From Escherichia coli (GTDB lineage Bacteria > Pseudomonadota > Gammaproteobacteria > Enterobacterales > Enterobacteriaceae), in the NCBI RefSeq assembly GCF_041886205.1, contig NZ_CP169029.1: 64,000 nt of DNA. One strand, written 5' to 3'. Below the pieces are notes generated by a model. The model was not told where the DNA came from and ran no database searches. It worked only from the letters and a program-made list of their open reading frames with translations. This document shows positions 1 to 6,241 of this stretch, piece after piece. Positions within the stretch are counted from its first letter, which is position 1. Each line of letters opens with the position of its first letter. The position numbers and the translations under genes were made by a program.

Positions 1-106
1 TCCAGAGGGGCAGAATAACCACACCGGAGTGTGGTTATGGTTAATCCCCTTCATATTTCAAGCCACAGATGCGATGACTCGAATTATTTTGGGGATACAT
101 ACTTTA

Positions 107-349
107 TTACTGGGTACTGGTGGTTGTGGTTGTGGTGGTCCCGGTATTAGAACCATCACCGCCACCGGTTGCCGCGAGCGCGACACCCACCGCCGAGCTT
201 ACGGTGCTGACGCTGGTCGCGGAGGAACTCCCCGCCGAAACCGACGTTGCTGCCGACCCTGCCGCTTCGCCCACCTGTACAGGTGCAGCCCACGCAGAAG
301 TCGCCGCAAGCGCAGATATGGCAAAAATGCCATACAGAACTTTTTTCAT
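107..349 (-). CDS. yjbE: YjbE, small secreted Ser/Ala/Thr-rich protein (first gene of the yjbEFGH exopolysaccharide locus)
   Basis: 80-aa ORF with signal-peptide-like N-terminus ([21 protein letters not shown]) and low-complexity S/A/T-rich tail ending in a poly-Thr run; sits downstream of pgi as in E. coli (recalled synteny). Confidence 0.75.
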
Positions 350-730
350 AACAATTTCCCTTCATTGAATGAATGGAGATTTACCCAAAAACATTTCGGG
401 CGGGATCGAGTATACACAACTAAAGCATGCGAATTACGGCGCGGGGAATTAGCGATGGTGTTTTAGGATAATTGGAATGAATATCAAATATAAGTTTCAA
501 CTTATATTTAAATAACAATAAAAATCATAAACTTAAAATAAAAACAAAAGTAATTAATCTGCGTATTCTCCGAAATAAACAACGATTAAAAATCTATTTT
601 AGGATTAACCTCACGGTATGATTTCCGTTAAATCACAGACAAGGGGATTTATCTGATAAAACAATACCGACTTATTGTCGGCATTGTTTTTAAGGTTATT
701 TAACTCCTCATACTATGCATTAATGTCGAT

Positions 731-800
<70 letters not shown>

Positions 801-810
801 CGCATGATGA

Positions 811-2460
811 TTAACCGCGCCACGCTTTATAGCGGTTAATCAGACCATTGGTCGAGCTATCGTGGCTGCTGATTTCTTTATCATCTTTCAGCTCTGGCAG
901 AATACGGTTCGCCAGCTGTTTACCCAGTTCCACGCCCCACTGGTCGAAGGTGAAGATGTTCAGGATCACGCCCTGAGTAAAGATTTTGTGCTCATACAGC
1001 GCAATCAACGCACCCAGGCTGAACGGAGTGATTTCGCGCAGCAGGATAGAGTTGGTCGGGCGGTTACCTTCGAACACTTTGAACGGCACCACGTAGTCAA
1101 GCGTTGCCGGATCTTTACCCTGATCGCGATATTCCTGCTCAACCACTTCGCGGGATTTACCAAACGCCAGCGCTTCGGTCTGAGCAAAGAAGTTAGACAG
1201 CAGTTTCTGGTGATGATCAGAGAGCGGGTTATGGGTGATAGCCGGAGCGATGAAATCGCACGGTACCATTTTGGTTCCCTGGTGGATCAGCTGGTAGAAC
1301 GCGTGCTGACCGTTAGTGCCTGGTTCACCCCAGATAATCGGGCCAGTCTGGTAATCCACAACGTTACCGTTACGGTCAACATACTTACCGTTGGACTCCA
1401 TATTGCCCTGCTGGAAGTACGCCGCGAAACGGTGCATATACTGGTCATACGGCAGAATCGCTTCAGTTTCCGCACCAAAGAAATTGTTGTACCAGATGCC
1501 AATCAGCGCCAGCAGGACAGGCAGGTTTTTCTCGGCAGGCGTGGTGGAGAAATGCTTGTCCATCGCGTGTGCGCCAGAAAGCAGTTCAACGAAGTTATCA
1601 AAGCCGATGGAGAGAACAATCGACAGGCCAATCGCTGACCACAAAGAGCAACGGCCGCCAACCCAGTCCCAGAACTCGAACATGTTGGCAGTATCAATAC
1701 CAAACTCGCCAACGGCTTTGGCATTGGTGGAAAGCGCCGCAAAGTGTTTTGCAACGTGTTTTTCATCACCTGCCGCTTTCAGGAACCAGTCACGCGCGCT
1801 ATGGGCGTTGGTCATGGTTTCCTGAGTGGTGAAGGTTTTAGATGCTACCAGGAACAGCGTGGTTTCCGGGTTTACTTTTTTCAGCACTTCCGCGATGTGA
1901 GTCCCATCGACGTTAGAAACAAAGTGCATGTTCAGGTGGTTTTTGTACGGACGCAGAGCTTCGGTCACCATGTATGGGCCGAGGTCAGAACCGCCGATCC
2001 CGATGTTCACTACGTCAGTGATTGCTTTGCCGGTATAACCCTTCCACTCACCGGAAATAATCGCTTCTGAGAAGGTTTTCATCTTCTCCAGCACCGCGTT
2101 GACTTCCGGCATTACGTCTTTGCCATCAACCAGAATCGGGGTATTGCTACGGTTACGCAGCGCTACGTGCAGCACGGCACGGTTTTCAGTGCGGTTGATC
2201 TTCTCGCCAGAGAACATCGACTTAATCGCGCCCGCCAGATCGCACTCTTTCGCCAGATCTTGTAATTTCGCCAGCGTCTCTTCAGTGATGCGGTTTTTGG
2301 AGTAATCCACCAGCATCTGATCGTCGAATGTTGCGGAGAACTTAGAAAAACGATCGCCGTCTTTAGCAAAAAGATCGGCGATCGTAACGTCTTTCATTTC
2401 ATCGAAGTGTTTCTGTAGTGCCTGCCAGGCAGCGGTCTGCGTTGGATTGATGTTTTTCAT
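811..2460 (-). CDS. pgi: Glucose-6-phosphate isomerase
   Basis: 549-aa product starting [19 protein letters not shown]..., full-length recognisable Pgi; ATG at 2458-2460 (the ORF track extends 2 codons upstream to a TTG). Confidence 0.97.
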
Positions 2461-2643
2461 TAGCAATACTCTTCTGATTTTGAGAATTGTGACTTTGGAA
2501 GATTGTAGCGCCAGTCACAGAAAAATGTGATGGTTTTAGTGCCGTTAGCGTAATGTTGAGTGTAAACCCTTAGCGCAGTGAAGCATTTATTAGCTGAACT
2601 ACTGATCGCCAGGAGTGGATGAAAAATCCGCATGACCCCATCG

Positions 2644-2672: not shown

Positions 2673-2699
2673 ATAAATGTACTACCTGCGCTAGCGCAG

Positions 2700-2984
2700 G
2701 CCAGAAGAGGCGCGTTGCCCAAGTAACGGTGTTGGAGGAGCCAGTCCTGTGATAACACCTGAGGGGGTGCATCGCCGAGGTGATTGAACGGCTGGCCACG
2801 TTCATCATCGGCTACAGGGGCTGAATCCCCTGGGTTGTCACCAGAAGCGTTCGCAGTCGGGCGTTTCGCAAGTGGTGGAGCACTTCTGGGTGAAAATAGT
2901 AGCGAAGTATCGCTCTGCGCCCACCCGTCTTCCGCTCTTCCCTTGTGCCAAGGCTGAAAATGGATCCCCTGACACGAGGTAGTT
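2700..2984 (+). promoter_or_regulatory. Lysine riboswitch (L-box) in the lysC 5' leader
   Basis: Long structured GC-rich leader starting AGAGGCGCGTTGCCCAAGTAACGGTGTTGGAGGAGCCAG... directly upstream of lysC; matches the known position and approximate sequence of the E. coli lysC L-box (recalled, not folded). Confidence 0.7.
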
Positions 2985-4334
2985 ATGTCTGAAATTGTTG
3001 TCTCCAAATTTGGCGGTACCAGCGTAGCTGATTTTGACGCCATGAACCGCAGCGCTGATATTGTGCTTTCTGATGCCAACGTGCGTTTAGTAGTCCTCTC
3101 GGCTTCTGCTGGTATCACTAATCTGCTGGTCGCTTTAGCGGAAGGGCTGGAACCTGGCGAGCGATTCGAAAAACTCGACGCAATCCGCAATATCCAGTTT
3201 GCCATTCTGGAACGTCTGCGTTACCCGAACGTTATCCGTGAAGAGATTGAACGTCTGCTGGAGAACATTACTGTTCTGGCAGAAGCGGCGGCGCTGGCAA
3301 CGTCTCCGGCGCTGACAGATGAGCTGGTCAGCCACGGCGAGCTGATGTCGACCCTGCTGTTTGTCGAAATCCTGCGCGAACGCGATGTTCAGGCACAGTG
3401 GTTTGATGTACGTAAAGTGATGCGTACCAACGACCGATTTGGTCGTGCAGAGCCAGATGTAGCCGCGCTGGCGGAACTGGCCGCGCTGCAGCTGCTCCCA
3501 CGCCTCAATGAAGGCTTAGTGATCACCCAGGGATTTATCGGTAGCGAAAATAAAGGTCGTACAACGACGCTTGGCCGTGGAGGCAGCGATTATACGGCAG
3601 CCTTGCTGGCGGAGGCTTTACACGCATCTCGTGTTGATATCTGGACCGACGTCCCGGGCATCTACACCACCGATCCACGCGTGGTTTCCGCAGCAAAACG
3701 CATTGATGAAATCGCGTTTGCCGAAGCGGCAGAGATGGCAACTTTTGGTGCAAAAGTACTGCATCCGGCAACGTTGCTACCCGCAGTACGCAGCGATATC
3801 CCGGTCTTTGTCGGCTCCAGCAAAGACCCACGCGCAGGTGGTACGCTGGTGTGCAATAAAACTGAAAATCCGCCGCTGTTCCGCGCGCTGGCGCTTCGTC
3901 GCAATCAGACTCTGCTCACTTTGCACAGCCTGAATATGCTGCATTCTCGCGGCTTCCTCGCGGAAGTTTTCGGCATCCTCGCGCGGCATAACATTTCGGT
4001 AGACTTAATCACCACGTCAGAAGTGAGCGTGGCATTAACCCTTGATACCACCGGTTCAACCTCCACTGGCGATACGTTGCTGACGCAATCTCTGCTGATG
4101 GAGCTTTCCGCACTGTGCCGGGTGGAGGTGGAAGAAGGTCTGGCGCTGGTCGCGTTGATTGGCAATGACCTGTCAAAAGCCTGCGGCGTTGGCAAAGAGG
4201 TATTCGGCGTACTGGAACCGTTCAACATTCGCATGATTTGTTATGGCGCATCCAGCCATAACCTGTGCTTCCTGGTGCCCGGCGAAGATGCCGAGCAGGT
4301 GGTGCAGAAGCTGCATTTTAATTTGTTTGAGTAA
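2985..4334 (+). CDS. lysC: Lysine-sensitive aspartokinase III
   Basis: 449-aa ORF MSEIVVSKFGGTSVADFDAMNRSADIVLSD..., ATG at 2985. Confidence 0.97.
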   Translation: MSEIVVSKFGGTSVADFDAMNRSADIVLSDANVRLVVLSASAGITNLLVALAEGLEPGERFEKLDAIRNIQFAILERLRYPNVIREEIERLLENITVLAEAAALATSPALTDELVSHGELMSTLLFVEILRERDVQAQWFDVRKVMRTNDRFGRAEPDVAALAELAALQLLPRLNEGLVITQGFIGSENKGRTTTLGRGGSDYTAALLAEALHASRVDIWTDVPGIYTTDPRVVSAAKRIDEIAFAEAAEMATFGAKVLHPATLLPAVRSDIPVFVGSSKDPRAGGTLVCNKTENPPLFRALALRRNQTLLTLHSLNMLHSRGFLAEVFGILARHNISVDLITTSEVSVALTLDTTGSTSTGDTLLTQSLLMELSALCRVEVEEGLALVALIGNDLSKACGVGKEVFGVLEPFNIRMICYGASSHNLCFLVPGEDAEQVVQKLHFNLFE

Positions 4335-4478
4335 TATTTCCCTACTGGCGTATAACGCTCACCAATTGTTATACGCCATCCTCACTGAAAATATAGATTA
4401 AATAATATCTGAAAAATAAAATCACTCCTGTAGAACAGTATTATAATCACCGAAAAATATTATTTAACAGGAGTGTTA

Positions 4479-5405
4479 ATGGCTACTTTAATGGAAAAAG
4501 ATGCACTTTTAAATGGCACCAGTCAGTGCATCGCGTTTTTATCAAATATCGTTGATAATTGCTCAGTTTCGTCACGTCAGGATTCAGGCGATGATCTCAC
4601 ACGATTAGTCAGCTATCGCGATTATCTTTACTCTACCCCCGCTGAACTTGTTGATTTTACACAGGGAAAGAGTCACCTTCAGCAGATTAGAACTCAATAT
4701 CAGCATGAATTCAACAATACTACGCATTCAGAAAATAAAGCATCTTTTGATTCTATTTGGCAGCGTCTGACAAATCATGAAGTCACACCGCAACAGCATC
4801 CCATTGGTTTTGTTTTAGGTGGGCAACCCGGAGCAGGTAAATCATCTCTGATTGAATTAGCCAAAAGAGAGACAAAAGATAATATAATGATTATTAACGG
4901 TGATGATTTTCGATTTCTACACCCTGATTTTAATTATATCTACCAAAATTATGGGGATGATTTTGTTACCCATACAGCGAAATTTTCCGGCGAAACGGTC
5001 GAACGTGCAATTGAGAGAGCGATAGTCAGTAAACTCAACATTGTTGTCGAAGGAACATTTCGTAATGCCGCTACGCCGTTACAAACATTAAAAAAACTCA
5101 AAGATGCAGGCTACCAAACAGAAGTCATGATAAAAACAACCTCAGCGGCATTAAGCTGGGAAAGCACCAATGAACGGTATAATAAGGACAAAGAGGCGGG
5201 AAATATTGCCCGAAAAGTGGATAAAAACCACCATGATATCGTCACCGGTTTGCTGGCAGAAAATGCCCGCAAGGTGTTTGCTTCGAACCTGTCAGATAAG
5301 TTTGCGGTGTATTCGCGTGAGAAGATGATATTTAGTTCACAAGCGGCAACGAATGACGATATTGCAACGCTTATACAGAATGAAATCAGCGGGAATACAC
5401 AATAA
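4479..5405 (+). CDS. Zeta-toxin-family P-loop kinase with ~100-aa N-terminal extension (EzeT-like single-chain toxin-antitoxin candidate)
   Basis: ATG at 4479 preceded by AGGAG (4468-4472); the ORF track starts 2 codons earlier at a GTG (4473). Walker A GGQPGAGKS at 4818-4844 and GDDFR at 4899-4913, as in zeta/PezT UNAG kinases; gene is visibly AT-rich compared with its neighbours. Confidence 0.8.
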   Translation: MATLMEKDALLNGTSQCIAFLSNIVDNCSVSSRQDSGDDLTRLVSYRDYLYSTPAELVDFTQGKSHLQQIRTQYQHEFNNTTHSENKASFDSIWQRLTNHEVTPQQHPIGFVLGGQPGAGKSSLIELAKRETKDNIMIINGDDFRFLHPDFNYIYQNYGDDFVTHTAKFSGETVERAIERAIVSKLNIVVEGTFRNAATPLQTLKKLKDAGYQTEVMIKTTSAALSWESTNERYNKDKEAGNIARKVDKNHHDIVTGLLAENARKVFASNLSDKFAVYSREKMIFSSQAATNDDIATLIQNEISGNTQ

Positions 5406-5440
5406 TAATAAGAGCTGATGGCGTGAAATAACGCCGGGCA

Positions 5441-6241
5441 TCACGCCCGGCGCATTACCGTCTGGTACATTAAGCTATCCAGTTCCTTAACGTCCCCTTC
5501 TCTGCTATCCGGTAACAGCGGTGGAATTTCCCCACGCGCCAGTTCCGCACGAATAAACGCATGTAACAATGGACGGCGCGGACCATATTCCGCTTCTCCT
5601 GCGCGCTGTTTACGTCCCAGTAATTCGTCTATTTCTGCACGTAACGGCGCATCAAGTTCACTTCCCGCCAGTAGCTCAGCAAAGCGCATTGGCGGCACGC
5701 CTTTTCCCGCTTCGACCCAGCGCACGGCCAGCAGCGGACGCAGCACGTAAAAGTATTTTTTCAGTCGAACTTCATCGCCCTGCAAATATCCGCGGAAGTT
5801 TTTCTGCGCCATCGAATAGTAATGCCAGCGCGCACGCAGCGGAGAAAACCACATTGGGACCATTGCCTTAAGCGCCGTTATCGTTTCTTCATCTTGTTGA
5901 TAGACCACCGGAGAATCCAGCCATTCTATCAGCGTCGGGTTCGCGCCTTTCAATAATCCCAGCGCCTTACGCCACTCCCAACCGGAAACATCTAACTCGT
6001 CGTCGATGGGCAGCTCGATAACATCGCGCGGCGGCTCCACCCGCAGATACCATTCCAGCGGGTGAACATACAAAAACCGTACATCGTAGTCGCTGTCGGG
6101 CGAGGCAAACCCCCAGCCGCGGCTCCCGGATTCACAGGCATACAGCACTTTCACGCCGTAGCGCCGTTCTATTTCTTTTAACTGCTGCGATACCCGTTCG
6201 CGCATCGCAGCACTGACTCCATTTAATGGCATGTTACTCAC
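5441..6241 (-). CDS. Pol-beta-superfamily nucleotidyltransferase-fold protein of unknown specificity
   Basis: 266-aa ORF from a GTG at 6241 that overlaps the upstream SPFH stop; alternative in-frame ATG at 6232. Contains GS-x10-DYDV (coding 6083-6127), the classic hG[GS]...DhDh NTase signature, plus downstream acidic residues (IELPIDDELD). Confidence 0.75.
   Translation of the reverse strand: MSNMPLNGVSAAMRERVSQQLKEIERRYGVKVLYACESGSRGWGFASPDSDYDVRFLYVHPLEWYLRVEPPRDVIELPIDDELDVSGWEWRKALGLLKGANPTLIEWLDSPVVYQQDEETITALKAMVPMWFSPLRARWHYYSMAQKNFRGYLQGDEVRLKKYFYVLRPLLAVRWVEAGKGVPPMRFAELLAGSELDAPLRAEIDELLGRKQRAGEAEYGPRRPLLHAFIRAELARGEIPPLLPDSREGDVKELDSLMYQTVMRRA

Follow-up and report, generated by a model that had tools for sequence, protein, structure and literature searches.

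A GGT/TGT array at the 3' end of yjbE in Escherichia coli as the probable coding DNA of a length-constrained seven-threonine tail

Related proteins and repeats

The yjbEFGH genes are described, in the summaries of Ferrieres 2007 given by PMC8117528 and PMC8208086, as Rcs-regulated and as involved in making an exopolysaccharide other than colanic acid. They are paralogous to gfcABCD (PMC8592465, PMC11494523), and the paralogue of YjbE, GfcA (YmcD), is the Thr-rich first product of the E. coli group 4 capsule operon gfcABCDE-etp-etk; GfcA and GfcD have been described as uncharacterised (PMC11494523). Like YjbE, GfcA is small and has a signal-like N-terminus and a low-complexity body (A/G/T/V in GfcA), and its C-terminus (...GDGGSHNTSTTTSTTR) aligns with the C-terminal 19 residues of YjbE. 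It differs from YjbE in length (101 aa), in Thr content (30%), in its extra N-terminal Thr runs and longer hydrophobic segment, in being annotated as an inner-membrane protein, and in having an interrupted Thr run instead of seven consecutive Thr (T7). Extracytoplasmic Ser/Thr-rich disordered regions of streptococcal membrane proteins are O-glycosylated (PMC12041528), and the YjbE tail may be likened to them as a Ser/Thr segment predicted to be unstructured, although the streptococcal case concerns other organisms with another envelope, and YjbE has no known glycosyltransferase or modification.

At the DNA level, the hexanucleotide VNTRs CVN014, CVN015, CVN016, and CVN017 of the E. coli MLVA (Lindstedt) scheme share 6-bp units and slippage with the tract at the 3' end of yjbE (PMC3407997, PMC8143711). 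Copy numbers of CVN014 range from about 1 to 15 (PMC3407997), and CVN015 has a single allele (PMC3407997, PMC8143711). Most 6-bp MLVA loci have many copies and alleles, whereas the yjbE tract has 2.8 copies and one length in 98% of genomes. As a candidate GECM-10 locus the tract was rejected, as none of the 20 published primers (PMC8143711, Table 1) matched the window (i.e., the whole stretch of E. coli DNA analysed here, 64 kb) or the yjbE flanks with up to two mismatches. The tract is neither a known nor a useful typing marker.

Contingency loci, known from Haemophilus, Neisseria, and Campylobacter, carry long perfect tracts whose unit sizes or positions bring about on/off switching of expression at high frequency. 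They have in common with the yjbE tract that slipped-strand mispairing takes place inside a gene for an envelope-associated product. An assignment of the tract to this class was rejected on three grounds: it has 2.8 hexamer copies with a Tandem Repeats Finder score of 34, and in most E. coli an ACG codon breaks the repeat; its 104 variants are all in frame, with one 2-nt deletion among 5,420 genomes to set against on/off switching; and about 98% of genomes share one length, in contrast to the frequent differences among close relatives that are typical of contingency loci. The tract is an ordinary, mildly polymorphic in-frame coding repeat and not a variable switch.

The yjbE gene, its threonine tract, and the neighbourhood

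At the left end of the window, yjbE is followed by pgi and lysC (Table 1). The Pfam profile PF11106 (YjbE) matched the open reading frame far above its cut-off of 27.9 bits, with residues 1-79 corresponding to profile positions 1-79, and 5,420 out of 5,426 complete E. coli genomes list the gene as yjbE, with the product name “exopolysaccharide production protein.” The gene opens the yjbEFGH exopolysaccharide operon, with yjbF, yjbG, and yjbH immediately 3' of it in matching RefSeq genomes, which places yjbF past the left edge of the window (before position 1). The N-terminus has, by inspection, a basic start, a hydrophobic core, and A-x-A preceding the cut, and AlphaFold placed a helix at residues 2-17 within this signal-like part. 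Some source databases name the product “YjbE secreted protein.” From its sequence, YjbE is probably a small, exported protein rich in Ala, Ser, Thr, and Gly; it is of low complexity over its whole length. The AlphaFold2 model, based on an alignment of 32 sequences, had low confidence (pLDDT 54) and consisted of the signal-peptide helix, a helix at residues 44-61, and a tail predicted to be without secondary structure.

Table 1. Features in and around the 3' end of yjbE, with positions in the window
Feature	Position	Strand	Basis or remark
yjbE CDS, 80 aa + stop	107..349	-	ORF; Pfam PF11106, 113.6 bits; RefSeq annotation
Probable Sec signal peptide, codons 1-21, then APVQ	287..349	-	Read by eye
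Seven Thr codons ACC ACC ACA ACC ACA ACC ACC	119..139	-	Sequence; length kept in 96/96 species genomes
Ser-Thr-Gln codons + TAA stop	107..118	-	Sole part of the tail differing between species
Perfect 17-nt hexamer repeat, GTGGTT x 2.8 (+ strand); coding-strand units ACCACA	120..136		Tandem Repeats Finder
ACCACCA 7-nt direct repeat, copy 1	133..139	-	Read from sequence
ACCACCA 7-nt direct repeat, copy 2, 15 nt downstream of copy 1	118..124	-	Sequence; 12-Thr allele
Sequences bounding the tract: TTACTGGGTACT and CCCGGTATTAGAACC			
Two strong hairpins, just 3' of the yjbE stop	15..38 and 46..94	-	Fold z-score -3.1
Partial isrH match	44..96		Rfam; weak, below gathering score
Enterobacterial sRNA STnc430, yjbE-pgi intergenic, opposite strand to both genes	546..695	+	Rfam; 64.6 bits, gathering score 47
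Terminator-like hairpin + T-run at the end of the STnc430 match	667..690		
REP/BIME-type palindromic repeat between yjbE and pgi	723..800		Below-threshold naRNA4 match
pgi	811..2466	-	
Lysine riboswitch upstream of lysC	2697..2893	+	RF00168, 99.5 bits; expected
lysC	2985..4334	+	
Accessory genes directly after lysC	~4335..6000		Annotations: zeta toxin family protein, nucleotidyltransferase-domain protein

YjbE ends in G-T7-S-T-Q. On the coding strand, GGG (142-140) is followed by the seven Thr codons (139-119), AGT (118-116), ACC (115-113), CAG (112-110), and TAA (109-107), and the ACC and ACA codons appear as GGT and TGT on the plus strand. The statement of an earlier note on this DNA that the end of YjbE is encoded by a GGT/TGT array on the minus strand is thereby confirmed; the plus-strand string quoted there, GGTACTGGTGGTTGTGGTTGTGGTGGT, corresponds to positions 113-139, and the range given with it (107-140) runs from the stop through the Gln, Thr, and Ser codons and the seven-Thr run to a single base of the Gly codon.

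Tandem Repeats Finder reported the hexamer repeat with 100% match, and in addition a period of 3 with 7.3 copies, 78% match, and a score of 30; both scores lie below the usual threshold of 50, i.e., the array is weak. Since each Thr codon is ACN, a run of Thr codons is necessarily periodic at the nucleotide level. Seven-Thr tracts were also simulated with codon frequencies approximating E. coli usage, and about 5.5% of them contained a perfect repeat of period 6 that was 17 nt or longer. As a Thr homopolymer forces an ACN repeat, and given the simulation, the DNA repeat is a by-product of the amino acid run: it is real, yet nothing beyond what poly-Thr runs often produce. In most E. coli, ACG at the fifth Thr codon (C at window position 125) interrupts the hexamer repeat, and the uninterrupted 17-nt repeat is a minority type found in about 346 genomes including the window. 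The tract was unpaired in the predicted RNA fold of the yjbE 3' end, and no Rfam family was found over it; a role of the tract at the RNA level was accordingly rejected.

Several observations were made on the surroundings. The hairpins 3' of yjbE, which include a 10-bp stem (AUAACCACAC/GUGUGGUUAU), fit the greater abundance and stability of yjbE mRNA relative to yjbFGH mRNA reported in PMC8208086 with reference to Ferrieres 2007. CFT073-type strains, seen here in CFT073 (L003) and strain 317 (L127), have about 73 bp inserted or replaced between yjbE and yjbF, at a site corresponding to window positions ~46-76, where these hairpins stand. In strain EC25 (L004, locus 503-689), an IS1A element disrupts the 5' portion of yjbE and truncates the signal peptide; this is reminiscent of sedimentation-resistant laboratory mutants, in which IS1 insertions in yjbE-yjbF and yjbF had been selected (PMC8117528). 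In strain ST361, which has nine Thr codons, yjbG is annotated as frameshifted (locus L133, 2555-3288; 4-nt deletion relative to other genomes), and the operon may be decaying in this strain. Within the REP/BIME-type repeat, the segment 750-784 had a median of 23 matching places per genome, and the accessory part after lysC was covered in about 1,436 of 5,425 genomes and is lacking in K-12. In pgi, the window has C at position 1649 (codon 1648-1650, minus strand) where other E. coli have T, i.e., TGC for TAC, which changes Tyr to Cys at about residue 271 in the conserved phosphoglucose isomerase motif GGR-Y-S. Among 5,424 complete E. coli genomes, none matched the 95 nt from 1602 to 1696 exactly (98.9% at best), and the 6 kb around the SNP were otherwise ~100% identical to strain wlxctx60; the SNP could have arisen as a private mutation or through laboratory evolution, or it could be a sequence error.

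Tract lengths within E. coli and how they change

Tract length was determined in 5,420 complete E. coli genomes using allele-specific BLAST queries, with identity bands separating the alleles. In this clonally biased sample, where direct reading covered 22 E. coli chromosomal alleles and the counts otherwise come mostly from identity bands and alignment spans, about 5,316 genomes encode seven Thr, 85 nine, 18 five, and one twelve. Non-standard lengths thus make up ~1.9% of the genomes (104 in-frame variants and one frameshift). With the 95-nt allele of the window as query, 346 genomes matched exactly, 4,970 at 95-99% (all sampled rows spanning the 95 nt), 103 at 90-95% (the nine-Thr and five-Thr genomes), and one at 80-90% (the 12-Thr strain). 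Alleles with 6, 8, 10, or 11 Thr were found in none of the 5,420 genomes, and the bands in which they would fall are fully explained by the identified alleles. A synthetic 11-Thr query brought out the 12-Thr strain and no 11-Thr allele; its bands are not directly usable, as big gaps split the alignments and inflate the identity of five-Thr genomes.

Two nine-Thr alleles were distinguished. ACC(ACCACA)3ACCACC, first seen in strain 126096, was present in 55 genomes at ≥99% identity, and ACC ACC ACA ACC ACA ACC ACG ACC ACC in 30 genomes at ≥99% (28 exact); the query for the latter was the allele predicted for K-12-type flanks before the search, and strain 317, which is among the 30, has CFT073-type flanks. 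The five-Thr tract exists as ACC ACC ACA ACC ACC and as ACC ACC ACG ACC ACC. In strain Res13-Lact-ER07-18, a 15-nt duplication, (ACCACCACAACCACG)2 ACCACC, gives 12 Thr, and in strain FCI56 (a CM-series assembly) a 2-nt deletion causes a frameshift, with the gene annotated as a pseudogene. Beside the 80-aa form, YjbE accordingly occurs with 78, 82, and 85 aa (5, 9, and 12 Thr), and the RefSeq non-redundant proteins WP_021575443.1 (82 aa) and WP_000757332.1 (78 aa) are each common to several genomes.

Metagenome contigs retrieved with a length-tolerant pattern had seven Thr in 20 of 20 cases, in two further synonymous versions, a sample too small for alleles at a frequency of 1%. An exact look-up of YjbE with 3-11 and 13 Thr in a collection of 15 billion proteins returned none of them, nor the canonical 80-aa K-12 protein, and is uninformative on variation. 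The same collection contained frameshifted or truncated YjbE, but the word-indexed homology search did not return the main clusters; its index may under-represent low-complexity proteins. The homologous-protein search returned mainly fragments and frameshift products, with a hint of T7-STQ ends in other species.

In all 104 in-frame variants, the tract differs by +6, -6, or +15 nt and never by 3 nt. The gain of 6 nt is one ACCACA unit, the loss of 6 nt is one ACCACR or ACAACC unit, and the 15-nt unit lies between the two ACCACCA copies, the spacing of which matches the duplication in the 12-Thr allele exactly. The indels are therefore whole repeat units bounded by direct repeats, as in an in-frame slippage polymorphism, and from these junctions we infer slippage as the mutational mechanism. 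Writing seven Thr as ACN creates the nucleotide periodicity, and the codon choice leaves direct repeats of short length, namely the ACCACR hexamers and the two ACCACCA copies at a distance of 15 nt. In the mechanism proposed here, replication slippage between these repeats would occasionally add or remove 6 nt or add 15 nt; the products would be in-frame proteins with 5, 9, or 12 Thr that arise repeatedly and stay rare.

Nine-Thr tracts occurred on window-like, K-12-like, and CFT073-like flanks, five-Thr tracts on at least three flanking backgrounds in ACA and ACG forms, and the 12-Thr tract once, i.e., 7-8 distinct combinations of allele and flank carried length variants. To judge from these flanks, length variants recur on different backgrounds, with recombination possible for some. 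Among the nine-Thr genomes, the 55 with the window-like haplotype have at least 1.2 kb of core flank in common and may represent one event spread by descent or recombination, which makes the number of slippage events uncertain. Flank haplotypes, compared in 12 genomes, fell into several backgrounds, and recurrent mutation and recombination are inseparable for the window-like nine-Thr allele; a search with 6-kb flanks for clustering of the nine-Thr genomes with the window was uninformative, its output being dominated by REP repeats and the accessory island after lysC. Lengths other than seven were found in ~68 of ~414 genomes with the uninterrupted-repeat allele versus ~36 of ~5,006 with other types. 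This excess, confounded by phylogeny and clonal sampling, is suggestive of a higher mutability of the uninterrupted hexamer allele; near-identical nine-Thr haplotypes from unrelated sources keep one length.

The earlier note had also predicted that the tract would be prone to slipped-strand length variation and that YjbE could therefore differ in length between isolates, an invariant tract across many genomes being the outcome that would speak against it. The comparison of yjbE 3' ends in the 5,420 genomes showed the tract not to be invariant, and alleles with slippage-like junctions and the corresponding shorter and longer proteins do exist, so that the prediction holds qualitatively; in extent it falls short, since the variants are rare and the 96 species genomes considered below all have seven Thr. 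Its choice of the trinucleotide as the slipping unit has to be abandoned, as the lack of single-codon changes means that the effective unit is a different one.

Tail length across species and competing readings

For a comparison across species, genomes were scanned with a degenerate DNA pattern for the upstream 12-residue motif, with no condition set on the downstream residues; the scan covers YjbE proteins that retain this motif. It yielded 96 species-level enterobacterial genomes from more than 15 genera (among them Citrobacter, Enterobacter, Kosakonia, Buttiauxella, Cedecea, Salmonella, and Siccibacter), and all 96 encode exactly seven Thr, in 54 synonymous versions of the 21 nt. The residues after T7 were STQ (66), STR (14), STTQ (5), STTTR (4), RTQ (3), and others. 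Few relatives, most of them short, came from a full HMMER scan of 1.84 billion cluster representatives. TG-T7 was kept in 7 of 14 full-length homologues at ~45-60% identity, and the other seven had Thr-rich tails of similar size (T5, T8, or interrupted runs). The best conserved block in the alignment of the YjbE family consists of the residues leading into T7, T7 itself, and the ST that follows, and this block is present in the YjbE of the window and in the 96 species genomes. Because the tract slips detectably within a species and has nonetheless one length across genera at saturated synonymous divergence, its length appears to be under purifying selection, as far as conservation can indicate; the finding that variants are recurrent yet rare and fixed in no sampled species fits such selection. 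We consider it likely that the GGT/TGT array is the coding DNA of a conserved, length-constrained seven-Thr C-terminal tail of YjbE, in which selection on tail length would keep seven Thr.

The tail might instead be a neutral low-complexity end whose length drifts, with seven Thr in E. coli by shared ancestry only. The low complexity of the whole protein would suit this reading, as would the low AlphaFold confidence with a tail modelled as unstructured, and no phenotype is known for the 5-, 9-, and 12-Thr variants. A drifting, slippage-prone tract would, however, be expected to differ in length between genera, and the constancy in 96 of 96 species despite 54 synonymous versions, together with the retention of T7 in homologues that are otherwise 45-60% identical, makes neutrality improbable.

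We regard it as very improbable that the tract is a hypervariable, contingency-type hot spot at which the length of YjbE is free to differ and thereby switches or tunes the protein. The 5-, 9-, and 12-Thr variants and the single frameshift do exist, on several haplotypes and with slippage-compatible junctions, but ~98% of the 5,420 genomes and all 20 metagenome contigs have seven Thr, there are only 2.8 hexamer copies, the only frameshift is in an assembly in which the gene is annotated as a pseudogene, and length is constant in the 96 species. Moreover, as the slipping units are multiples of three, slippage does not result in on/off switching.

Equally remote is adaptive tuning, by which 5- or 9-Thr alleles would have been selected in certain lineages, e.g., a carbapenem-resistant clone including strain ST361, through effects on exopolysaccharide export or anchoring. 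A nine-Thr allele does lie on a near-identical haplotype that has been sampled widely, from humans, crows, food, and wastewater, and a change in a tail that is otherwise strongly conserved might matter. Against this, the variants are fixed in no species, the frameshift in yjbG of strain ST361 suggests relaxed rather than positive selection, and clonal expansion for other reasons explains the counts equally well. That the length variants are assembly or sequencing artefacts is hardly credible: the 2-nt deletion in the CM-series assembly of FCI56 could be an error, but the 6- and 15-nt in-frame indels recur with consistent flanks across dozens of complete assemblies produced independently by different laboratories, and WP_021575443.1 and WP_000757332.1 are each shared by several genomes.

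Returning to the length-constrained tail, a role can be proposed by analogy, because of published speculation on the paralogue GfcA, for which it has been suggested that GfcA/YjbE carry sugar (PMC8592465). As a speculation, the most plausible role of the YjbE tail would be that of an extended Ser/Thr segment which the polysaccharide being exported, or the YjbFGH outer-membrane machinery, modifies or touches. A narrower version, which we hold to be doubtful, would make T7 a strictly length-dependent functional element of the YjbE/GfcA family, i.e., a site of polysaccharide attachment or priming or a spacer for the YjbH/GfcD double-barrel exporter, so that the 5-, 9-, and 12-Thr alleles would alter export or anchoring.

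The gene, the protein family, and the behaviour of short coding repeats are all already known, and the result has little import for genome biology; it is useful mainly to work on the YjbEFGH and GfcABCD export systems. For such work, the Thr7 tail, as the most conserved feature of YjbE, is the obvious place to seek a modification or an interaction, and the natural 5-, 9-, and 12-Thr alleles in sequenced strains can serve as test material.
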